From NCBI RefSeq assembly GCF_016903815.1, contig NZ_CP069973.1: a stretch of DNA of 64,000 nucleotides. One strand, given 5' to 3'. The first letter of the stretch is position 1. Every line of letters starts with the position of its first letter. Made by a program: the position numbers and the translations under genes. The stretch comes from Escherichia coli (GTDB lineage: Bacteria > Pseudomonadota > Gammaproteobacteria > Enterobacterales > Enterobacteriaceae). Shown here one piece after another: positions 17,208 to 54,631 of the stretch. The notes below the pieces were generated by a model. It searched no databases and had not been told where the DNA came from. It was given only the letters and a program-made list of their open reading frames with translations.

Positions 17208-17486
17208 TGGGGTGGAGGAGGTTCAGACCCTTTTTTTGATGATGATGGTAAGTTGTTGATAATTAGTGCTGCGGGAAGGTAAGGATAAAAAAGGGTGCTG
17301 CAGGAGAATGGGATGGTTTTGCTTTATTAACAACGGGCTAAACGTGTAGTATTTGAGTTCATTGCCGTACAGGCAGCTTAGAAAGCCAACCGAAAGAAAA
17401 ACTCGATTTTTATACCGTTCACTGCCGTACAGGCAGATAAAATGCGAAAAAAAACTCGTACTTTCGTACGAGCTCTTCTTTGAATA

Positions 17487-18022
17487 TGGCGGTGAGGGGG
17501 GATTGACTCGCTTCGCTCGCCCTGCGGGCAGCCCACTCACTGTGTTCGTGGTCTGTCCAACTGGCTGCGCCAGTTGTCGAACCCCGGTCGGGGCTTCTCA
17601 TCCCCCCTGGAGTGCAATATGCGAAAAAAAAGCTCGCACTTTCGTACGAACTCTTCTTTGAATATGGCGGTGAGGGGGGGATTGACTCGCTTCGCTCGCC
17701 CTGCGGGCAGCCCACTCACTGTGTTCGTGGTCTGTCCAACTGGCTGCGCCAGTTGTCGAACCCCGGTCGGGGCTTCTCATCCCCCTTGGAGTGCAATATG
17801 CGAAAAAAAAGCTCGCACTTTCGTACGAGCTCTTCTTTGAATATGGCGGTGAGGGGGGGATTGACTCGCTTCGCTCGCCCTGCGGGCAGCCCACTCACTG
17901 TGTTCGTGGTCTGTCCAACTGGCTGCGCCAGTTGTCGAACCCCGGTCGGGGCTTCTCATCCCCCTTGGAGTGCAATATGCGAAAAAAAAGCTCGCACTTT
18001 CGTACGAGCTCTTCTTTGAATA
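17487..18022. repeat. tandem array of three ~179-bp direct repeats (17487-17664, 17665-17843, 17844-18022), each ending in a copy of the tRNA-Ser 3' end and containing a terminator-like hairpin plus T-run; a partial degenerate copy lies upstream at ~17340-17486
   Basis: Direct inspection: the motif tggcggtgaggggg recurs at 17487, 17665, 17844 and at the genuine tRNA 3' end (18023); the sequence between copies is near-identical. Confidence 0.85.
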
Positions 18023-18110
18023 TGGCGGTGAGGGGGGGATTCGAACCCCCGATACGTTGCCGTATACACACTTTCCAGGCGTGCTCCTTCAGCCACTCGG
18101 ACACCTCACC
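18023..18110 (-). tRNA. serW: tRNA-Ser (GGA anticodon), serW-type
   Basis: Reverse complement reads GGTGAGGTGTCCGAGTGGCTGAAGGAGCACGCCTGGAAAGTGTGTATACGGCAACGTATCGGGGGTTCGAATCCCCCCCTCACCGCCA; long variable arm; 3' CCA encoded. Confidence 0.92.
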
Positions 18111-32937: not shown

Positions 32938-32957
32938 TACCCAATTTTTCTGAATCT

Positions 32958-32985
32958 AAAAAGCGCCTGCGGGCGCTTTTTTTGT
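32958..32985 (+). terminator. serS rho-independent terminator
   Basis: aaaaagcgcctgcgggcgctttttttg: GC hairpin followed by a T-run. Confidence 0.7.
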
Positions 32986-33175
32986 CTCCCTTTGATACCG
33001 AACAATAATTACTCCTCACTTACACGTAATACTACTTTCGAGTGAAAATCTACCTATCTCTTTGATTTTCAAATTATTCGATGTATACAAGCCTATATAG
33101 CGACCTGCTATAGAAATAATTACACAATACGGTTTGTTACTGGAATCAATCGTGAGCAAGCTTGAGTGAGCCATT

Positions 33176-45271: not shown

Positions 45272-45543
45272 GTATTCGTATTGAAATTGGCGAACGTTAT
45301 GTCGTTACCAGTGACAGCTTTCAGTTTATTCTCCACGAGAAAAAGAGAGCTGAAAGCGGTAAAAACGCCGGTCAGGAATGGCTGGCGGTGGTTGGTTATT
45401 ACCCGAAATTAAGCCAGCTTGTTTCCGGCCTGATGCATCACGATATTCTGACCGGAAGCGCAAAGTCTTTTGCTGATTTAAACGCGCAGGTTGAGCAACT
45501 CAGCAAGCGTTGTTCAGAGGCTTTTGGCTCATATGGCCGTTAA
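45268..45543 (+). CDS. P2 orf83-like hypothetical protein
   Basis: 91-aa ORF preceding A. Confidence 0.7.
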   Translation: MSIRIEIGERYVVTSDSFQFILHEKKRAESGKNAGQEWLAVVGYYPKLSQLVSGLMHHDILTGSAKSFADLNAQVEQLSKRCSEAFGSYGR

Positions 45544-47821
45544 AGCCTCCGGGCGTTTTGTCCCTCCGTCAGCATTTGCCGCAGGCACCGGTGAGACGTT
45601 TACCGGTGCTTATGCATGGAACGCGCCACGCGAGGCCGTCGGGCGCGAAAGACCCCTTACACGTGACGAGATGCGTCAGGTGCAAGGTGTTTTATCCACG
45701 ATTAATCGCCTGCCTTACTTTTTGCGCTCGCTGTTTACTTCACGCTATGACTACATCCGGCGCAATAAAAGCCCGGTGCACGGGTTTTATTTCCTCACAT
45801 CCACTTTTCAGCGCCGTTTATGGCCGCGTATTGAGCGCGTGAATCAGCGCCATGAAATGAACACCGACGCGTCGTTGCTGTTTCTGGCAGAGCGTGACCA
45901 TTATGCGCGTCTGCCGGGGATGAATGACAAGGAGCTGAAAAAGTTTGCTGCCCGTATCTCATCGCAGCTTTTCATGATGTATGAGGAACTCAGCGATGCC
46001 TGGGTGGATGCGCATGGCGAAAAAGAATCGCTGTTTACGGATGAGGCGCAGGCTCACCTCTATGGTCATGTTGCTGGCGCTGCACGTGCTTTCAATATTT
46101 CCCCGCTCTACTGGAAAAAATACCGTAAAGGACAGATGACCACGAGGCAGGCATTTTCTGCTATTGCCCGCCTGTTTAACGATGAGTGGTGGATTAGCCA
46201 GCTTAAAGGCCAGCGTATGCGCTGGCATGAGGCGTTACTGATTGCTGTCGGGGAGGTCAATAAAGACCGTTCTCCTTATGCCAGTAAACATGCCATTCGT
46301 GATGTGCGTGCGCGCCGCCAGGCAAATCTGGAATTTCTTAAATCGTGTGACCTTGAAAACAGGGAAACCGGCGAGCGCATCGACCTTATCAGTAAGGTGA
46401 TGGGCAGTATTTCTAATCCTGAAATTCGCCGGATGGAGCTGATGAACACCATTGCCGGTATTGAGCGTTACGCCGCCGCAGAGGGTGATGTGGGGATGTT
46501 TATCACGCTGACCGCGCCGTCAAAGTATCACCCGACTCGTCAGGTCAGAAAAGGCGAAAGTAAAACCGTTCAGCTTAATCACGGCTGGAACGATGAGGCA
46601 TTTAATCCAAAGGATGCGCAGCGTTATCTCTGCCGCATCTGGAGCCTGATGCGCACGGCATTCAAGGATAATGATTTACAGGTCTACGGTTTGCGTGTCG
46701 TCGAGCCACACCACGACGGAACGCCGCACTGGCATATGATGCTTTTTTGTAATCCACGCCAGCGTAACCAGATTATCGAAATCATGCGTCGCTATGCGCT
46801 CAAAGAGGATGGTGACGAAAGAGGAGCCGCGCGAAACCGTTTTCAGGCAAAGCACCTTAACCGGGGCGGTGCTGCGGGATATATCGCGAAATACATTTCA
46901 AAAAATATCGACGGCTATGCACTGGATGGTCAGCTCGATAACGATACCGGTAAGCCGCTTAAAGATACTGCCGCGGCTGTTACCGCATGGGCGTCAACGT
47001 GGCGCATCCCGCAATTTAAAACGGTTGGACTGCCGACAATGGGGGCTTACCGTGAACTACGCAAATTGCCTCGCGGCGTCAGTATTGCTGATGAGTTTGA
47101 CGAACGCGTCGAGGCTGCTCGCGCTGCCGCAGACAGTGGTGATTTTGCGTTGTATATCAGCGCGCAGGGTGGGGCAAATGTCCCGCGCGATTGTCAGACT
47201 GTCAGGGTTGCCCGTAGCCCGTCGGATGACGTTAACGAGTACGAGGAAGAAGTCGAGAGAGTGGTCGGCATTTACGCGCCGCATCTCGGCGCGCGTCATA
47301 TTCATATCACCAGAACGACGGACTGGCGCATTGTGCCGAAAGTTCCGGTCGTTGAGCCTTTGACTTTAAAAAGCGGCATCGCCGCGCCTCGGAGTCCTGT
47401 CAATAACTGTGGAAAACTCACCGATGGTGATACTTCGTTACCGGCTCCCACACCTTCTGAGCACGCCGCAGCAGTGCTTAATCTGGTTGATGACGGTGTT
47501 ATCGAATGGAGTGACCCGGAGGTCGTGAGGGCGCTCAGAGGTGCATTAAAACACGGTCGGAGAACGCCAAATCGTCAGCAAAGAAACGGAAGCCCGTTAA
47601 AACCACATGAAATTGCACCATCGGCCAGACTGGCCCGGTCGGAAAGAATGCAAATTACCCGTATCCGCGTTGACCTTGCTCAGAACGGTATCAAGCCGCA
47701 GCGATGGGAGCTTGAGGCGCTGGCGCGTGGCGCGACCGTAAATTATGACGGGAAAAAATTCACGTATCCGGTCGCTGATGAGTGGTTCGGATTTCAAGAT
47801 GAAGTGTCATTTTTTATATAA
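45533..47821 (+). CDS. A: P2 replication initiation protein A (rolling-circle nickase)
   Basis: ~762 aa from MAVKASGRFVPPSAFAAG; HUH-type region (EPHHDGTPHWHMMLF) and catalytic tyrosine region (AGYIAKYISKN). Confidence 0.92.
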   Translation: MAVKASGRFVPPSAFAAGTGETFTGAYAWNAPREAVGRERPLTRDEMRQVQGVLSTINRLPYFLRSLFTSRYDYIRRNKSPVHGFYFLTSTFQRRLWPRIERVNQRHEMNTDASLLFLAERDHYARLPGMNDKELKKFAARISSQLFMMYEELSDAWVDAHGEKESLFTDEAQAHLYGHVAGAARAFNISPLYWKKYRKGQMTTRQAFSAIARLFNDEWWISQLKGQRMRWHEALLIAVGEVNKDRSPYASKHAIRDVRARRQANLEFLKSCDLENRETGERIDLISKVMGSISNPEIRRMELMNTIAGIERYAAAEGDVGMFITLTAPSKYHPTRQVRKGESKTVQLNHGWNDEAFNPKDAQRYLCRIWSLMRTAFKDNDLQVYGLRVVEPHHDGTPHWHMMLFCNPRQRNQIIEIMRRYALKEDGDERGAARNRFQAKHLNRGGAAGYIAKYISKNIDGYALDGQLDNDTGKPLKDTAAAVTAWASTWRIPQFKTVGLPTMGAYRELRKLPRGVSIADEFDERVEAARAAADSGDFALYISAQGGANVPRDCQTVRVARSPSDDVNEYEEEVERVVGIYAPHLGARHIHITRTTDWRIVPKVPVVEPLTLKSGIAAPRSPVNNCGKLTDGDTSLPAPTPSEHAAAVLNLVDDGVIEWSDPEVVRALRGALKHGRRTPNRQQRNGSPLKPHEIAPSARLARSERMQITRIRVDLAQNGIKPQRWELEALARGATVNYDGKKFTYPVADEWFGFQDEVSFFI

Positions 47822-48039
47822 AAAACGTTAAAATTCAATGCAATGAAGGCATGGAGGAGGTCGCTTTAATATGTTTTATGTTTAATATTTATTAATTGTT
47901 TATTTAATATAAAAAAATATTATATATAGGGAGATCAAATACAACGGTTTACTTGTTATGATGCAAACATTGGTTAGTTAGTGAGATACATCGCCATCAA
48001 TTGGGTAACTTTACCCGTGGAAAGTTAACGCTTTCTAAC

Positions 48040-48225
48040 ATTTACCCCGCGCAACGCCCCTGCCAGCGACAAGAGTCACAGGATCAGGCGGTATGGCGTA
48101 TGGGTATTCGAACCCTTTGGGCGACCAAGGGTTCGTGGAGCAGGGGGCTAGTGCTGTTCAATCTCATCCTTATGAGGGCGAACCATAGTGTTGGAGCAGG
48201 CATATCGTTTGCACACTATGGGCAT
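48040..48225 (+). ncRNA. candidate structured ncRNA (possible retron msr/msd or other regulatory RNA)
   Basis: GC-rich island in AT-rich cargo with several stems: cgcccctgc/gcagggg (48054-48147), cgaaccctt/aagggttcg (48107-48134), ccatagtg/cactatgg (48183-48221); immediately upstream of the HTH-RT genes. Confidence 0.3.
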
Positions 48226-48237
48226 AAGGAGCAAATC

Positions 48238-48393
48238 ATGAAGAATGATAAATTAACCAACGAACAGCAGGCGCAGAACAAGTCAAACCTGAAAAAGTGG
48301 GCTGGTTATGTTTGGAAATTAATCAAATGGGGTATTAGACTGTTTGATTTAGCCACTCGAGCACTGGACTACTTTGAAGGGGGTGATGAGTAA
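48238..48393 (+). CDS. small 51-aa protein, amphipathic (hypothetical)
   Basis: ATG with AAGGAG RBS 6-7 nt upstream; MKNDKLTNEQQAQNKSNLKKWAGYVWKLIKWGIRLFDLATRALDYFEGGDE; may instead be untranslated RNA. Confidence 0.35.
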   Translation: MKNDKLTNEQQAQNKSNLKKWAGYVWKLIKWGIRLFDLATRALDYFEGGDE

Positions 48394-48429
48394 TGCGTCC
48401 TCCCTAGTTTCAATAGCATGGAGTTGCCT

Positions 48430-48750
48430 ATGTTACACAGAGCCCTTCGTTTAATAAGGCAATACCATAAAGAGTCATTGGTTGATTTATCAACATCTTT
48501 AGGTATTCCAAAAGAAAAAATAGTAGAACTCGAAAGTGGGGTTTGGTCGCCTACAATTGATGTTTTACAGCGTTACGCCTCCCATTTCGATATGCCGGTA
48601 TCTTCTTTAGTATTTTTTTCAGAATCGTTAGGTACGCAGGGGCGTTTATCTAAGCGTTTCCGTTTAAATTTAGCTGGTAAAGTATTAGATGTTATTGAGT
48701 GGGCGAATAAGAAAAATGAAAAGACGAATAAAACTCAAAATTTCCACTAA
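48430..48750 (+). CDS. XRE/Cro-type helix-turn-helix protein, putative partner of the RT
   Basis: 106 aa from MLHRALRLIRQYHKESLVDLSTSLGIPKEKIVELESGVWSPTIDVLQRYASHFDMPVSSLVFF (HTH_XRE-like pattern); GGAG RBS; 3' end overlaps the RT start. Confidence 0.6.
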   Translation: MLHRALRLIRQYHKESLVDLSTSLGIPKEKIVELESGVWSPTIDVLQRYASHFDMPVSSLVFFSESLGTQGRLSKRFRLNLAGKVLDVIEWANKKNEKTNKTQNFH

Positions 48751-49666
48751 AAATAAATCTTACGATATAATTGATTCGCCGTTTTATAAAATGAGAAGTA
48801 AAAGGAAATTGGCTTCTTTATTGGGGGTTGATGTAGGGGATTTATCAACCTTAAAAAAAGATGAAGGCAATTATTCTATTTTTGAACAGTTATCTAAAAA
48901 CGGAAAGCCACGTAAGATACAAAAACCATTAGAAAAATTAGATGTGGTGCATACTCGTATTGCAAGTCTGCTATCGCGAATTACTTTGCCAGATTATCTA
49001 CATTCTGGAAAGAAGGGATGTTCTAATGTTACTAATGCTAAAATCCACCTTAATAATGAAAGGTTGATGACAACCGACATCAGGGCTTTTTTTCCATCAA
49101 CTACCAGAGAAATGATATTTTCATTCTTTTTTTCTGTTATGAAGATGTCATCTGATGTTGCGGATGTATTATCGTATATATGTACTTGCTATGGGCGTTT
49201 GCCTACAGGTAGCAGGATTAGTATGCCTCTTGCATATTTTGCAAATTCCAGAATGTTCGGAGAAATACACCAACTTTGTAATAAACTACACGTAAATATG
49301 TCTGTTTATGTTGATGATCTAACTTTTTCAGGACAAAACGTTAATAGACTATTTTGTTCAGTGATTCGCAAAATAATAAATAAGCATGGTCATGTGATGC
49401 ATGCGGATAAAACAAAAATTTATAGTAGAGAAAAGCCTAAGTTGGTAACAGGTGTTATTGTTTTGGGCGGTTCTTTAAAAGTCAGGAATAAGCAGCATCT
49501 TTTAATGTCTCAAGAAATTGAATATTGGAAAATGATAAAGGATGCAGCGTGTGCAAGAGAAACTCATACTGCCAAAAAGTTATTTGGACGATTGCATTCT
49601 ATGGGGGTAATTGAACAACGTTATAGATCAAAGGTGCTTACATTAAAAGCAAGTACTGCACTTTAA
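48716..49666 (+). CDS. retron-type reverse transcriptase
   Basis: RT motifs visible: DIRAFFPS (motif A), YVDDLTFSG (motif C), retron-typical NAxxH (NAKIH) and VTG (KLVTGVIVLGG); ~316 aa; start codon uncertain (48689, 48716 or 48791). Confidence 0.8.
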   Translation: MKRRIKLKISTKNKSYDIIDSPFYKMRSKRKLASLLGVDVGDLSTLKKDEGNYSIFEQLSKNGKPRKIQKPLEKLDVVHTRIASLLSRITLPDYLHSGKKGCSNVTNAKIHLNNERLMTTDIRAFFPSTTREMIFSFFFSVMKMSSDVADVLSYICTCYGRLPTGSRISMPLAYFANSRMFGEIHQLCNKLHVNMSVYVDDLTFSGQNVNRLFCSVIRKIINKHGHVMHADKTKIYSREKPKLVTGVIVLGGSLKVRNKQHLLMSQEIEYWKMIKDAACARETHTAKKLFGRLHSMGVIEQRYRSKVLTLKASTAL

Positions 49667-49774: not shown

Positions 49775-51139
49775 CTAATTTTTTAATGTGTATTTTTCTG
49801 TGATTAGTTTCATTGTTCTTTCCAATCCTAAATATACAGTGGCATCAGTAATATTGAGCACGGCAAGTTCTTTTAAAATTTTCTTTTTGTCTCTGATGTT
49901 TATTTTTTCTGTCTTAAAATTGTATGGTGAATTATCTGCCTGATCGTTGGATATCTCAGGAAAAACGGCGTTATTACCGAATAATAAAAAGGCACCGGAT
50001 TGAGATGATATTCTTTCATTATTTATTCTGCTTTTTACAAAAATTATTTTTTCCAAATCCTCTGGATTTATTATGCTTTTAAAATATGGTTTTTCATGCT
50101 TTATGGATTCTAAGAGTTTAAGGCAAGCATGAGAGCTGTTAAAATCATTATTTCTTTCTTCGAAAGAAAGCTTGTCTTTCATGTCTTTTGATAGCATGCA
50201 TAAATTAGATATGCAACTGACAGTGTCGGAATCGAAAAATTTAATGTTCTCTCTGTGTGTTTTAAATATTATTACTTGACCATCGATATCGTTTTTGTCG
50301 GAATTTATACTACTGCATGCAAAATAAAGTGCAATTAATGGATTTGATGTGATGTCAAGTAAGCGAGTAGGTATGCCATAATGTTGCATTCTTACAAGTT
50401 TATCAAGCATTGATGTATCATCAATGAATTCTGAGGGTCTTGCGCTCAATGCTTCTTTAACAAGGTTGATTTCATTATGTAGAAATTTATAGTTCCCATT
50501 TTCATATTTTCTGAAAAGAGATGGTGCAAGTTCATAAGATGAATCTGAATGACCCCTGTAAAAAATCTCCTCATCCATATCTGCTGTTATATGGAGAACT
50601 TTTTCAATAAATTCTTGTAAACTATTTACGGTTAATAATGTGCTATCTTCGTCTGGGAGAGGCGCTGGACTGCTATCCACTTGTGCATTTTGGTTAATAC
50701 CAAATGTCTTAAGGATATCATCTATATTTTTGTCTTTTATGGCCCAGTGTGTTCTTTTAAGGCCATAAGTTCCGAGTTCTAAACTGCTTTCAACACTTTT
50801 GGCGTCTGATATTTTGATTTCATTGTGTGTATGGGTGATTGCAAATTGGAAGTTGATTTCTTTTCCCTTAATGTGAATATTTGAAATTCTTCCAATTCGT
50901 ATGTCGACATAATAAGGTTTTGCTCCCTCTATTTGATAAGCTTCACTCATGAATATTGTTGGGAGTTTTTCAAGATAAGATAGTACATTACTGCTTAATG
51001 GGGATAGTTTTTTACGAATACCATCGGAGGTGTTTTCAAACATTCGTGATAAAAGAAATGAGAATTCTCCATTATTTTGGCTGAATGGTTTCCAGTGGTC
51101 GTAGTGGTCGGGAAAACCACCCATAATTAAATTAATCAT
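49775..51139 (-). CDS. FRG-domain-like protein (C-terminal FRG-type motifs, uncharacterised N-terminal domain); candidate defense gene
   Basis: 454-aa AT-rich ORF convergent with the RT; motifs FYRGHSDSSYELAPSLFR and RMQHYGIPTRLLDITSNPLIALYFA. Confidence 0.6.
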   Translation of the reverse strand: MINLIMGGFPDHYDHWKPFSQNNGEFSFLLSRMFENTSDGIRKKLSPLSSNVLSYLEKLPTIFMSEAYQIEGAKPYYVDIRIGRISNIHIKGKEINFQFAITHTHNEIKISDAKSVESSLELGTYGLKRTHWAIKDKNIDDILKTFGINQNAQVDSSPAPLPDEDSTLLTVNSLQEFIEKVLHITADMDEEIFYRGHSDSSYELAPSLFRKYENGNYKFLHNEINLVKEALSARPSEFIDDTSMLDKLVRMQHYGIPTRLLDITSNPLIALYFACSSINSDKNDIDGQVIIFKTHRENIKFFDSDTVSCISNLCMLSKDMKDKLSFEERNNDFNSSHACLKLLESIKHEKPYFKSIINPEDLEKIIFVKSRINNERISSQSGAFLLFGNNAVFPEISNDQADNSPYNFKTEKINIRDKKKILKELAVLNITDATVYLGLERTMKLITEKYTLKN

Positions 51140-51651: not shown

Positions 51652-52686
51652 TCAGCCGTTGTCAGTGTCCAGTGAGTAGTTTTTAAAGCGGATGACCTCC
51701 TGACCGAGCCAGCCGTTTATTTCCCGAATCCTGTCCTGTAACGGGATAAGCTCATTGCGGACAAAGACCTTTGCCACTTTCTCAATATCACCCAACGACC
51801 CGACGTTCTCCGGCTTGCCGCCCATCAACTGAAAAGGGATGCGGTGCGCGTCCAGCAGGTCAGCGGCGCTGGCTTTTTTGATATTAAAAAAATCGTCCTT
51901 CGTTGCTACTTCACTGAGCGGGATAATTTTAATGCCGTCAGCTTTCCCCTGCGGGGCATAGAGAAACAGGTTTTTAAAGTTGTTGCGGCCTTTCGACTTC
52001 ACCATGTTTTCGCGAAGCATTTCGATATCGTTGCGATCCTGCACGGCATCAGTGACGTACATGATGTATCCGGCATGAGCGCCGTTTTCGTAATACTTGC
52101 GGCGGAACAGCGTGGCCGACTCATTCAGCCAGGCAGAGTTAAGGGCGCTGAGATATTCCGGCAGGCCGTACAGCTCCTGATTAATATCCGGCTCCAGCAG
52201 GTGAAACACGGAACCGGGCGCGAAGGCTGTCGGCTCGTTGAAGGACGGCACCCACCAGTAAACATCCTCCTCCACGCCACGGCGGGTATATTTTGCCGGT
52301 GAGATTTCCAGTCTGATGACCTTACCGGTGGTGCTGTAACGCTTTTCCAGAAATGCATTACCGAACACCAGAAAATCCAGCACAAAGCGGCTGAAATCCT
52401 GCTGGGAAAGCCACGGATGCGGGATAAATGTCGAGGCCAGAATATTACGTTTGACGTAAATCGGTGAGCTGTGATGCACGGCAGCACGCAGGCTTTTTGC
52501 CAGACCGGTAAAGCTGACCGGTGGCTCATACCATCTGCCGTTACTGATGCACTCAACGTAATCCAGAATGTCACGGCGGTCGAGTACCGGCACCGGCTCA
52601 CCAAAGGTGAATGCCTCCATTTTCGGGGCGCTGGCGGTCATTGTTTTTGCCGCAGGTTGCGGTGTTTTCCCTTTTTTCTTGCTCAT
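51652..52686 (-). CDS. Q: P2 portal protein gpQ
   Basis: 344-aa ORF MSKKKGKTPQPAAKTMTASAPKMEAFTFGEPVPVLDRRDILDY; adjacent to cos and P. Confidence 0.9.
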   Translation of the reverse strand: MSKKKGKTPQPAAKTMTASAPKMEAFTFGEPVPVLDRRDILDYVECISNGRWYEPPVSFTGLAKSLRAAVHHSSPIYVKRNILASTFIPHPWLSQQDFSRFVLDFLVFGNAFLEKRYSTTGKVIRLEISPAKYTRRGVEEDVYWWVPSFNEPTAFAPGSVFHLLEPDINQELYGLPEYLSALNSAWLNESATLFRRKYYENGAHAGYIMYVTDAVQDRNDIEMLRENMVKSKGRNNFKNLFLYAPQGKADGIKIIPLSEVATKDDFFNIKKASAADLLDAHRIPFQLMGGKPENVGSLGDIEKVAKVFVRNELIPLQDRIREINGWLGQEVIRFKNYSLDTDNG

Positions 52687-54458
52687 CAGTAAAACTCCAG
52701 AATGGTGGATGTCAGCGGGGTGCTGATACCGGCGGTGAGTGGCTCATTTAACAGGGCGTGCATGGTCGCCCAGGCGAGGTCGGCGTGGCTGGCTTCCTCG
52801 CTGCGGCTGGCTTCATAGGTGGCACTGCGTCCGCTGCTGGTCATGGTCTTGCGGATAGCCATAAACGAGCTGGTGATGTCGGTGGCGCTGACGTCATATT
52901 CCAGACAGCCACGGCGGATAACGTCTTTGGCCTTGAGCACCATTGCGGTTTTCATTTCCGGCGTGTAGCGGATGTCGCGCGCGGCGGGATAGAACGAGCG
53001 CACGAGCTGGAACACGCCGACACCGAGGCCGGTGGCATCAATTCCGATGTATTCGACGTTGTATTTTTCGGTGAGTTTGCGGATGGATTCAGCCTGGGTG
53101 GCAAAGTCCATGCCTTTCCACTGGTGACGCTCAAGTATTCTGAATTTGCCACCGGCCACCACCGGCGGTGCCAGCACCACGCATCCGGCGCTGTCGCCAC
53201 GGTGTGACGGGTCGTAACCAATCCATACCGGGCGGGAGCCGAACGGATTGGCGGCAAACGGTGCATAGTCTTCCCATTCTTCCAGCGTGTCGACCATGCA
53301 GCGTTGCAGCTCCTCGAACGGGAACACCGATGCCTTGTCGTCAACAAATTCACACATGAACAGGTTTTTAAAATCGTCGGCGCTGTTTTCGCGTTTGAGC
53401 TGCTCAATGTCGAACAGCGTGCAGCCGCCTTTCAGGGCGTCCTCAATGGTGACAATCTGTCGCCACTGGCCGTCCGCACAGAGAAGCCCACCGGCAAGGG
53501 CGTTATGACTGACGTCGATTTCCACGCGTTCGGCGGCGCTGGCGCGTCCCCGGTTGAACAGTTCACCCGACCAGAACGGGTAGGCGTCGTGCGCCAGCGT
53601 GGACGGGGTGGAGAAATAGGTCGAGCGCAGGTGACTCTGTGAGGCCATACCTGATGCCACCTTACGCAGTACCTGAAAATTCGGGATCCAGAAAATCTCG
53701 TCGACGTACAGGTCGCCGTTATGGCTCTGTGCGGTGTTGGAGTTGGTGCCGAGAAAAATCAGTTTTGCGCCGTTATTGCCCAGGACAATCGGGTCACCGG
53801 TCAGGTCAACGTCAACCAGCCGGGCAAAGGCGATGATGTATTCGCGGAACACATACGCCTGCGTTTTACTGGCCGACAGAAAAATCTGGTTATGACCGGT
53901 TTTCAGGGCGCGCAGCAGCGCCTCGCGGGAAAAATAAAACGTTGCGCCAATCTGGCGGGATTTCAGGATATCGCGGATGCGGTGCTCAAGCCCGGCGCGA
54001 TACCAGTGCAACTGATAGTCGAAAGACTGCTCAAAGAAAATCTGCTCCAGCTTTTCGATGGCCTCGTCACTGAAAAAATTCTTTTTCGGTTTGCGCCGCC
54101 CGCCTTTGTTGCGGTTAGCGACGTTCGGATTAAGGTCTGCCTCGTTGCCGGTCTGGCTGTAACGGTTGACCCGTGCCAGTCGTTCAATCTGGCGTCCCAG
54201 CAGGTCAATTTCCTTGAAGTCACCGCCGGTTTTCTGCGGTTTGATGATGAGCTGGGTCAGCCGCGCTTCCAGACTCATTTCGACACGGCTGATGGGGGCA
54301 ACGCTGTCCCAGCCGTCGCGCTGTTTCCAGCTCTGCACCGTCGGGCGTTTCATCTGCAACATGGCGGCAATCTGCGGCACGGAAAACCCCTGCCAGTACA
54401 GCAGCGCCGCCTGACGACGCGGGTCGTGTAAAAGAGTGGTGTCTGTGGTGATGGTCAT
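52686..54458 (-). CDS. P: P2 terminase large (ATPase) subunit gpP
   Basis: ~590 aa from MTITTDTTLLHDPRR; terminase family. Confidence 0.9.
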   Translation of the reverse strand: MTITTDTTLLHDPRRQAALLYWQGFSVPQIAAMLQMKRPTVQSWKQRDGWDSVAPISRVEMSLEARLTQLIIKPQKTGGDFKEIDLLGRQIERLARVNRYSQTGNEADLNPNVANRNKGGRRKPKKNFFSDEAIEKLEQIFFEQSFDYQLHWYRAGLEHRIRDILKSRQIGATFYFSREALLRALKTGHNQIFLSASKTQAYVFREYIIAFARLVDVDLTGDPIVLGNNGAKLIFLGTNSNTAQSHNGDLYVDEIFWIPNFQVLRKVASGMASQSHLRSTYFSTPSTLAHDAYPFWSGELFNRGRASAAERVEIDVSHNALAGGLLCADGQWRQIVTIEDALKGGCTLFDIEQLKRENSADDFKNLFMCEFVDDKASVFPFEELQRCMVDTLEEWEDYAPFAANPFGSRPVWIGYDPSHRGDSAGCVVLAPPVVAGGKFRILERHQWKGMDFATQAESIRKLTEKYNVEYIGIDATGLGVGVFQLVRSFYPAARDIRYTPEMKTAMVLKAKDVIRRGCLEYDVSATDITSSFMAIRKTMTSSGRSATYEASRSEEASHADLAWATMHALLNEPLTAGISTPLTSTILEFY

Positions 54459-54631
54459 GAATACCTCGCCGTGATGAATACACGGCAAGGCTACTGAGTC
54501 GCGCCCCGCGATTCGCTAAGGTGCTGTTGTGTCAGTGATAAGCCATCCGGGACTGATGGCGGAGGATGCGCATCGTCGGGAAACTGATGCCGACATGTGA
54601 CTCCTCTAATCACTATTCAGGACTCCTGACA

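Follow-up and report, generated by a model that had tools for sequence, protein, structure and literature searches.

We analysed a 51-codon open reading frame (ORF) in a 64,000-nucleotide (nt) stretch of Escherichia coli DNA (contig NZ_CP069973.1; the window), which is occupied from about 41.9 kb onward by a P2-like prophage. The ORF lies in a cargo slot between replication gene A and the portal gene of this prophage, in which an AT-rich stretch is followed by a G+C-rich non-coding stretch (about 47969-48235), the 51-codon ORF, a helix-turn-helix (HTH) gene, an overlapping reverse transcriptase (RT) gene and, on the opposite strand, a gene for an FRG-domain protein. The HTH and RT genes share a 35-nt overlap, and the catalytic motif of the RT is intact (YVDD within NMSVYVDDLTFSG). 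Using the classification of Mestre et al. 2020 as implemented in PADLOC, we found that the RT scored 351 bits against the RT_VI model and aligned to 278 of its 279 positions; RT_III-A came second (3.9e-45). With a Type VI RT, an HTH gene just upstream and overlapping, and an intact YxDD motif, the module is a Type VI retron. A first-pass annotation had proposed that the ORF encodes an amphipathic micro-protein acting as effector or toxin of the RT module or, alternatively, that this DNA is part of the non-coding RNA (ncRNA), for example an msd, with an ORF present by chance. Our analysis indicates that the ORF very probably encodes SP, the toxin-effector of the P2-borne retron, and that its coding sequence is embedded in a hybrid RNA, in which its translation would be repressed until released by multicopy single-stranded DNA (msDNA).

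Type VI retron operons consist of an ncRNA, SP, HTH and RT (Zhang et al. 2025, bioRxiv 10.1101/2025.10.22.683967, the source for Vpa2 and Eco12 throughout). In Retron-Vpa2 of Vibrio parahaemolyticus, the msr-msd and the SP coding sequence are carried on one abundant 'hybrid RNA' (hyRNA) of ~470 nt, in which the SP ribosome-binding site and start codon lie inside stem-loops and a conserved 7-nt direct repeat is found once in the msd loop and once in the riboregulator loop. Vpa2 SP is toxic by itself and an early stop (K15*) abolishes toxicity, its mode of toxicity being unknown according to the authors. Vpa2 msDNA cannot be detected at rest and builds up when phage recombination proteins are present or HTH is lost; it is needed for SP translation, and its supply in trans is sufficient. 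Both loss of the Vpa2 HTH protein and its R7D mutant are toxic. Retron-Eco12, a Type VI retron of E. coli, protects against lambda vir, has no detectable msDNA at rest and has an SP that the authors' SP tree places with that of Vpa2. Retron-Sen3 encodes a 79-amino acid (aa) SP of cluster cl2075, and both its single-stranded DNA (ssDNA) and its SP are made constitutively, with HTH acting as a post-translational antitoxin that is released by RecBCD inhibition (García-Rodríguez et al. 2026, bioRxiv 10.64898/2026.04.27.721009). RT-dependent ssDNA and phage protection have been shown for Vpa2, Eco12 and Sen3 (bioRxiv 10.1101/2025.10.22.683967; 10.64898/2026.04.27.721009).

The 51-codon frame is a conserved gene

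The ATG (48238-48240), the AAGGAG Shine-Dalgarno (SD) sequence and the 51-codon frame described in the first-pass annotation were confirmed, with a 6-nt spacer, an identical translation and a TAA stop at 48391-48393; RefSeq already covers the frame with a coding sequence (CDS), WP_001754918.1, named 'hypothetical protein'. The size of the ORF alone is no evidence for a gene, with 87 ORFs of 30 aa or more overlapping the 10 kb around it; this ORF stands above chance because of its conservation. The frame was intact at exactly 51 codons in all 26 loci first fetched (15 distinct DNA versions). Across all the related loci retrieved it was likewise intact, with 47-55 codons, and each time HTH and then RT genes came after it. 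Conservation in homologous loci, which the first-pass annotation had set as a test, was thus observed. The other five frames contained stops in essentially all versions. The median Nei-Gojobori ratio of nonsynonymous to synonymous substitution rates (dN/dS) was 0.25 (84 pairs), third codon positions were the most variable (29, 23 and 38 variable columns at positions 1, 2 and 3), and the sole length difference among close homologues was an in-frame deletion of three residues (P0008). We conclude that the SP frame is a real gene under purifying selection.

The frame remains open for 92 further codons upstream in the window, through the structured RNA described below, and it could be argued that the 51 residues are the C-terminus of a longer product initiated at, for example, TTG 48001 (130 aa, 48001-48393) or an ATG 22 codons upstream; some gene callers indeed output versions of 71-99 aa (P0002, P0009, P0011). 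However, in 6 of 18 loci the frame is closed by a stop 1-14 codons upstream of the ATG and offers no other start, from which we take ATG 48238 to be the conserved start. The upstream region also shows RNA covariation rather than codon-pattern conservation and has 1-nt indels between lineages, and the sole good SD precedes 48238. A longer product is therefore scarcely credible, and we regard the 130-aa ORF, the upstream frame of which is not conserved in related loci, as spurious.

When 1.8 billion cluster representatives were searched exhaustively with a profile, 16 matched, almost all of them 47-55 aa long. They share the pattern M-x-(N/K)-x-x-x-x-x-(E/D)-Q-Q-A, a basic central part, W, I-R, a hydrophobic helix and a terminal (E/D)-G-G. 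The five distant members that were located on contigs each lie directly upstream of an HTH gene of ~103 aa and an RT gene of ~317 aa, in contexts that are otherwise unrelated (near BREX-like and SIR2 genes, a MatE transporter or a lipase). The peptide had no match in Pfam, NCBIfam, PADLOC or the PDB sequences, and its only PHROGs match was phrog_15287, 'unknown function'. AlphaFold2, run on the family alignment, modelled SP as one helix spanning residues 4-48, with a confidence (pLDDT) of about 90 over residues 21-40. The maximum hydrophobic moment of this helix is 0.81, making it strongly amphipathic, as the first-pass annotation had suggested. Hydropathy gave no membrane-spanning segment (top 19-residue Kyte-Doolittle mean of 0.61, compared with about 1.6 usual for a transmembrane helix), and we rejected a transmembrane toxin on this ground; SP may instead bind to membrane surfaces.

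Profile comparison with hhalign connected the window SP family (17 sequences) to the Vpa2-like SP group over 48 of 51 columns (E 2.8e-6). This group was built from database homologues and is 93% identical to the Vpa2 SP sequence that we rebuilt from the supplementary table of the preprint. Both proteins are ~50 aa long; they carry a (D/E)QQ motif close to the N-terminus, are basic in the middle, have a hydrophobic C-terminal helix and end in (D/E)GGD. They differ in length (51 aa in the window, 55 aa in Vpa2; about 23% identity) and in the character of the C-terminal helix, which is amphipathic in the window, with Arg, Asp and Thr interspersed, and aromatic-rich in Vpa2. The homology to an SP that is a toxic effector by experiment (bioRxiv 10.1101/2025.10.22.683967) supports the proposal that the ORF encodes the effector or toxin of the RT module.

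In comparison, the window SP has no significant full-length similarity to the Sen3-type SPs. The cl2075 proteins are ~79 aa long, with a polar N-terminal extension of ~25 residues and a C-terminal helix of the form R(I)xDIxxRxVxNxxDWMK; the window SP has 51 aa and lacks the extension. The match between them is a local one of 16 columns in the C-terminal helix (hhalign E 0.002, probability 14%; window IRLFDLATRALDYF, Sen3-family amphipathic helix LRITDIAIRAVSNL), and the cl2075 sequences used here are approximate, having been rebuilt from a machine-read table. Profile comparison of the Vpa2-like SP group with the cl2075 SPs gave no similarity. We therefore group the window SP with that of Vpa2 and, presumably, Eco12, and not with that of Sen3. 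As a separate observation, SP residues 32-46 (48331-48375) contain the pattern I-R-L-x-D-L-x-x-R-x-V, which resembles the amphipathic helix of the cl2075 SPs and may point to a common origin of the two SP families or to a partner that both bind.

A structured RNA includes the SP coding sequence

As a single sequence, 47925-48420 folded with a z-score of -4.9. RNAalifold applied to 12 divergent versions (47963-48418 and equivalents) predicted 123 pairs, 22 of which were kept by changes on both sides; column shuffles gave 8.9 ± 2.1 such pairs, and 0 of 500 reached the observed value. In the consensus 97.8% of cells were paired. When the partner was slid by 1-3 columns as a control, these values fell to 2-5 compensatory pairs and about 40% of cells. 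An independent 14-sequence fold of the core gave the same helices, with compensatory changes at 19 of 39 pairs. Distant loci were compared by anchored motifs and a 202-column sub-alignment; the alignment of the whole RNA has 486 columns. Rfam contained no retron RNA matching 47700-48800 at a permissive threshold or the whole window at the gathering threshold. We conclude that the coding sequence for SP forms part of a conserved, structured retron RNA. By homology with the Vpa2 hyRNA, this would be a single RNA of about 450 nt extending roughly from 47969 to 48415. No terminator-like site was found in 47822-48430, which is compatible with SP and the msr-msd lying on one transcript.

These results bear on the other proposal of the first-pass annotation, that the DNA is ncRNA and its ORF due to chance. 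As proposed, the coding sequence lies within a structured retron transcript; however, the ORF is not due to chance and does not lie in the msd, which by homology would be at about 48045-48135. The toxin gene and the ncRNA, offered as alternatives, therefore hold together, and the same DNA is both gene and structured RNA. The converse, that the region functions as RNA alone and that the untranslated frame stays open as a by-product of RNA conservation, would account for the clear RNA-structure selection on the coding region, for the coincidence of the conserved EQQAQ and EGGDE with paired segments and for the lack of database matches to the peptide. Such an explanation is nevertheless very improbable, given that lineages with as little as about 32-40% amino-acid identity still have a 47-55-codon frame with SD and ATG and the other frames closed, that dN/dS and the in-frame P0008 deletion have the signature of a coding sequence, that hydrophobic periodicity is maintained despite nucleotide changes, and that in the homologous Vpa2 SP alone is toxic and K15* abolishes toxicity (bioRxiv 10.1101/2025.10.22.683967).

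Table 1. Genes and RNA elements of the retron module and flanking prophage genes (positions in the window)
Feature	Position	Strand	Basis or remark
Replication protein A gene	45491-47821		Pfam Phage_GPA 1e-121
Putative extended -10 promoter element TGtTATGAT	47954-47962	+	Sequence reading; predicted 5' end near 47969
5' inverted-repeat arm ATTGGTTAGTTA	47969-47980	+	Can pair with SP codons 4-8 (48249-48260)
Two short conserved stem-loops, TGGGTA/TACCCG and TGGAAAGT/GCTTTCTA, msr-like	48002-48037	+	RNAalifold; compensatory changes at 3 pairs
Long stem, variable top, conserved base CCC.GCGC...GCC/GGT...GCGT...GGG	48045-48104	+	Predicted main part of msd
Conserved hairpin CGAACCCTT-TGGGCGACC-AAGGGTTCG	48109-48135	+	Loop holds direct-repeat copy 1 GGGCGA, 48119-48124
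TGGAGCAGGGGG	48136-48147	+	Pairs with 3' arm 48400-48412: 12 pairs, 99% of cells paired in 12 sequences
TGCTGTTC	48152-48159	+	Pairs with SP codons 9-11 GAACAGCA, 48262-48269, Glu-Gln-Gln; invariant in enterobacterial set
Anti-Shine-Dalgarno TCCTTATG	48167-48174	+	Pairs with CATAAGGA (48223-48230), covering most of SD
Direct-repeat copy 2 GGGCGA	48176-48181	+	Directly 3' of anti-SD, riboregulator internal loop
Riboregulator hairpin CCATAGTG...CACTATGG, inner stem GCAGGC/GTTTGC	48183-48221	+	Stacked on anti-SD:SD helix
Shine-Dalgarno AAGGAG of SP gene	48226-48231	+	6-nt spacer caaatc; position and spacing conserved
Start-codon small hairpin	48237-48239/48245-48247	+	RNAalifold consensus
SP gene, 51 codons + TAA	48238-48393	+	Frame conservation, dN/dS, family, synteny, Vpa2 SP homology, helix
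Third arm, remaining SP coding sequence self-folded	48270-48399	+	Closed by GGCGCA (codons 11-13) : TGCGTC just past stop codon
3' inverted-repeat arm CTCCCTAGTTTCA, a1-like	48400-48412	+	Non-coding, yet conserved family-wide
Retron HTH gene, 106 aa	48430-48750	+	PADLOC HTH_VI 7.2e-30; start per RefSeq CDS; Arg7 conserved
Retron reverse transcriptase gene, 316 aa, YVDD catalytic motif	48716-49666	+	PADLOC RT_VI 1.1e-105; Pfam RVT_1
Portal gene	51652-52686	-	
Terminase gene	52686-54488	-	

The elements around the SP start are those expected of a translational switch in the Vpa2 manner (Table 1). The anti-SD:SD duplex was present as 8-12 bp in 11 of 11 loci, with compensating differences between lineages (e.g. 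TCCTCGTG/CATGAGGA and CTCTGTAATT/AATTACGGAG), and in the local fold the probability of being unpaired was about 0.17 for the SD and 0.02 for the A and U of the AUG. The adjacent riboregulator hairpin had compensatory changes at 6 pairs in the close set, and in the 14-sequence set 5-7 sequences were changed on both sides at most pairs. Both copies of the direct repeat occurred in 11 of 11 loci, copy 2 in the form GG(G)CGAAC, and the Vpa2-like locus (L027) has GGACGAA in both copies; this arrangement fits the repeat pair published for Vpa2. The hairpin that carries copy 1 is predicted, by analogy with Vpa2, to be the 3' end of the template and thus the 5' stem-loop of the msDNA. Its stem is entirely different, yet still paired, in three distant lineages (L028 CGTGTGATTGG/CCAATCACACG, L030 CGACGACT/AGTCGTCG, L032 CGCACTTT/AAAGTGCG), all of which retain the loop GG(G)CGA(A)C. 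The long stem on its 5' side has conserved closing pairs around an insert that differs by ~20 nt in length between lineages, and we provisionally assign it to the msd by analogy with the Vpa2 long stem-loop, on which a 63-nt core msDNA was mapped.

Pairing also reaches into and beyond the coding sequence. The helix between TGCTGTTC and the Glu-Gln-Gln codons shows a double change in L027 and L032, to TGCTGATC/GATCAGCA (Asp-Gln-Gln). Within the third arm, a synonymous GCG to GCA change is matched by a C to T change past the stop codon, and the apical stem (48321-48330/48340-48349) has 5 compensatory pairs. The 48136-48147/48400-48412 helix is mostly invariant, which makes its covariation support weak within the close set; read by eye, L027 has CGAGAC..GGGGG / CCCCC..GTTTCG at this position. 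The 5' arm, directly followed by a conserved motif (GTGAGATA, 47981-47988), and the equivalents of SP codons 4-8 can form a duplex of 8-11 bp in 10 of 10 loci with sequences that differ by lineage, including a compensatory G to A / C to T change in a divergent locus (L004). Since this duplex cannot be nested with helices 48152-48159/48262-48269 and 48136-48147/48400-48412, it represents either a pseudoknot or an alternative conformer.

Two other pairings of the 5' region were discarded. The local helix 47969-74/47996-48001 chosen by RNAalifold is doubtful, as it breaks in L004, where the SP-codon pairing is kept; and the 5' GGGAG (47929-47933) : CTCCC (48400-48404) helix that closes the minimum free energy fold of the single sequence has a 5' arm that is not conserved in sister loci and is probably upstream of the transcription start. 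Elements of the form TGnTAnnAT occur at the same place as the putative -10 element in divergent loci; a consensus promoter scan did not flag the element at 47954-47962.

A perfect 9-nt direct repeat, TGGAGCAGG, was also observed at 48136-48144 and 48192-48200, at near-equal spacing from GGGCGA on the msd and riboregulator sides, and a cDNA of 48105-48147 could in principle anneal to the riboregulator in both of its parts (RNAduplex -38.7 kcal/mol). We rejected TGGAGCAGG as the counterpart of the published repeat, as its second copy is conserved only in close relatives and the family-wide repeat is GGGCGA(A)C; it may be a lineage-specific extension of the repeat, or due to chance.

Proposed control of SP and alternatives

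The likeness to Retron-Vpa2 covers the whole locus. Both have the order ncRNA, SP, HTH, RT and an HTH protein with Arg7 (N-terminus MLHRALR in the window, MIHRALR in the Vpa2-like locus). Both have SD:anti-SD pairing, a start codon in a hairpin and TGCTGNTC paired with the (D/E)-Q-Q codons. In both, a CGAACC...GGTTCG hairpin carries the repeat in its loop, with a second copy in the riboregulator, and the 3' end pairs back to the segment after the hairpin. L027 shows the landmarks of the window, namely CGAACC...GGTTCG, GAG..GGGGGC, GTGCTG(A/T)TCAATC, anti-SD, repeat, SD and 3' CTCCC..GTTTC(G/A)A. The two retrons differ in the repeat (GGGCGA in the window, GGACGAA in Vpa2) and in the host element, which here is a P2-like prophage of E. 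coli; the experiments were all on the Vpa2 allele. Retron-Eco12 likewise is a Type VI retron of E. coli origin; it may be the same element as the window locus or as one of the sister loci that are 80-84% identical to it.

On this basis we propose the following mechanism. A constitutive RNA would carry SP together with an msr-msd-like template, and the HTH protein and RT would bind this RNA. In the resting cell, the anti-SD would pair with the SP SD, the start codon would lie in a hairpin and the coding sequence would be folded on itself, so that little or no SP is made, with the HTH protein restraining reverse transcription. Upon infection, phage recombination or anti-RecBCD functions would allow ssDNA copied from about 48045-48135 to accumulate. 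The 5' stem-loop of this msDNA would bear the complement of GGGCGA and could pair with repeat copy 2 beside the anti-SD, thereby remodelling the riboregulator to allow SP translation. The helical, amphipathic SP would then halt growth of the infected cell (abortive infection).

Type I toxin-antitoxin systems such as hok/sok and tisB/istR offer a parallel, in which a toxic peptide of ~50 aa is encoded by an mRNA that hides its SD by long-range 5'-3' pairing and is translated after RNA remodelling. The proposed activator here differs, being ssDNA reverse-transcribed from the same transcript, which takes the place of RNA processing or of the loss of an antisense RNA. The sequences are unrelated, and the window SP has no transmembrane segment.

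Several points weigh against this reading. Homology between the window SP and that of Vpa2 is moderate, at an hhalign probability of 88%. Homologous retrons are the sole source for the toxicity of SP and its repression at translation, for msDNA as the trigger, and for where the msd and the transcript begin and end. The two covariation-supported long-range pairings that cannot be nested leave the predicted fold only partly resolved, and in a simple thermodynamic model blocking the repeat beside the anti-SD failed to free the SD by itself. Finally, Sen3 SP is constitutive and neutralised by HTH (bioRxiv 10.64898/2026.04.27.721009), and given this different mode, regulation cannot be assumed from Type VI membership.

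This last point raises the possibility that the window encodes the same toxin under Sen3-type control, with SP made constitutively, HTH acting as antitoxin until released by phage inhibition of RecBCD, and the RNA structure serving RT recognition or scaffolding. Such control has been demonstrated in another Type VI retron (bioRxiv 10.64898/2026.04.27.721009), and the HTH gene always adjoins SP, loss of HTH is toxic in Vpa2 too, and the C-terminal helix of the window SP resembles that of the Sen3 family in the 16-column match given above. Sen3 also shares with the window a small helical toxin upstream of HTH and RT, an SP CDS within conserved RNA, covariation inside the CDS and an inverted repeat reaching past the stop codon. 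However, the window SP belongs to the Vpa2-like family and not to cl2075, and the anti-SD:SD helix and the repeat pair covary family-wide, including in the Vpa2-like locus, which would be hard to explain if translation were unregulated. We consider Sen3-type control in place of translational control unlikely, although the two may not be mutually exclusive, and a Sen3-like post-translational layer exerted by HTH may coexist with msDNA-released translation. A more speculative extension, to which we likewise assign a low probability, is that this lineage combines both published modes of control and links the two SP families, the first SP codons acting as a switch between two RNA conformers. If so, a closed form would be bound by RT and HTH and an open form would be available to ribosomes, making ribosome entry and use by RT mutually exclusive.

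The class of retron, its toxin and the two modes of regulation are already known from the preprints of 2025-2026, and our analysis opens no new question. It gives an identity to a RefSeq 'hypothetical protein' and to phrog_15287, and it provides independent comparative support for the hybrid-RNA model, as covariation between enterobacterial and Vibrio systems is seen for SD sequestration, for the repeat pair and for the ncRNA segment paired to the (D/E)-Q-Q codons.

Distribution of the module and neighbouring features

Of 5426 complete E. coli genomes, 99 carry the 1.9-kb module (59 at ≥99% identity, 28 at 80-90% and 12 at 60-80%). It is also present in Peduovirus P22H1, and Klebsiella phage ST147-VIM1phi7.1 has a version with ~80% identity. 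SP has no Pfam, NCBIfam or PADLOC model and its RNA no Rfam family, yet about 2% of complete E. coli genomes carry the module, as do P2-like phages of both E. coli and Klebsiella. L004, on the E. coli C5 chromosome near yeiP, has a divergent but whole SP-HTH-RT module (SP 55% identical) that is not part of a P2 prophage; its neighbours are a DUF4236 gene and a gene for a 465-aa hypothetical protein. The retron module thus moves independently of the phage.

The FRG-domain protein (454 aa; 49775-51139, minus strand; Pfam FRG 2.4e-21; PADLOC candidate system PDC-S15 9e-98) shares the P2 cargo slot with the retron, its gene lying tail-to-tail with that of the RT. Other small genes (L002, L005) or a gene for a 266-aa hypothetical protein (L003) take its place in sister prophages. 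The FRG gene thus looks like independent, swappable cargo and is possibly a second defence gene.

Elsewhere in the window, gathering-level Rfam matches corresponded to ordinary E. coli chromosomal features on the minus strand: tRNA-Ser(GGA) at 18023-18110, RtT RNA at 17487-17621 and the sRNA STnc130 at 32951-33085. A single CRISPR-DR4 match at 17357-17384 probably reflects a stray sequence that resembles a repeat, and not an array.

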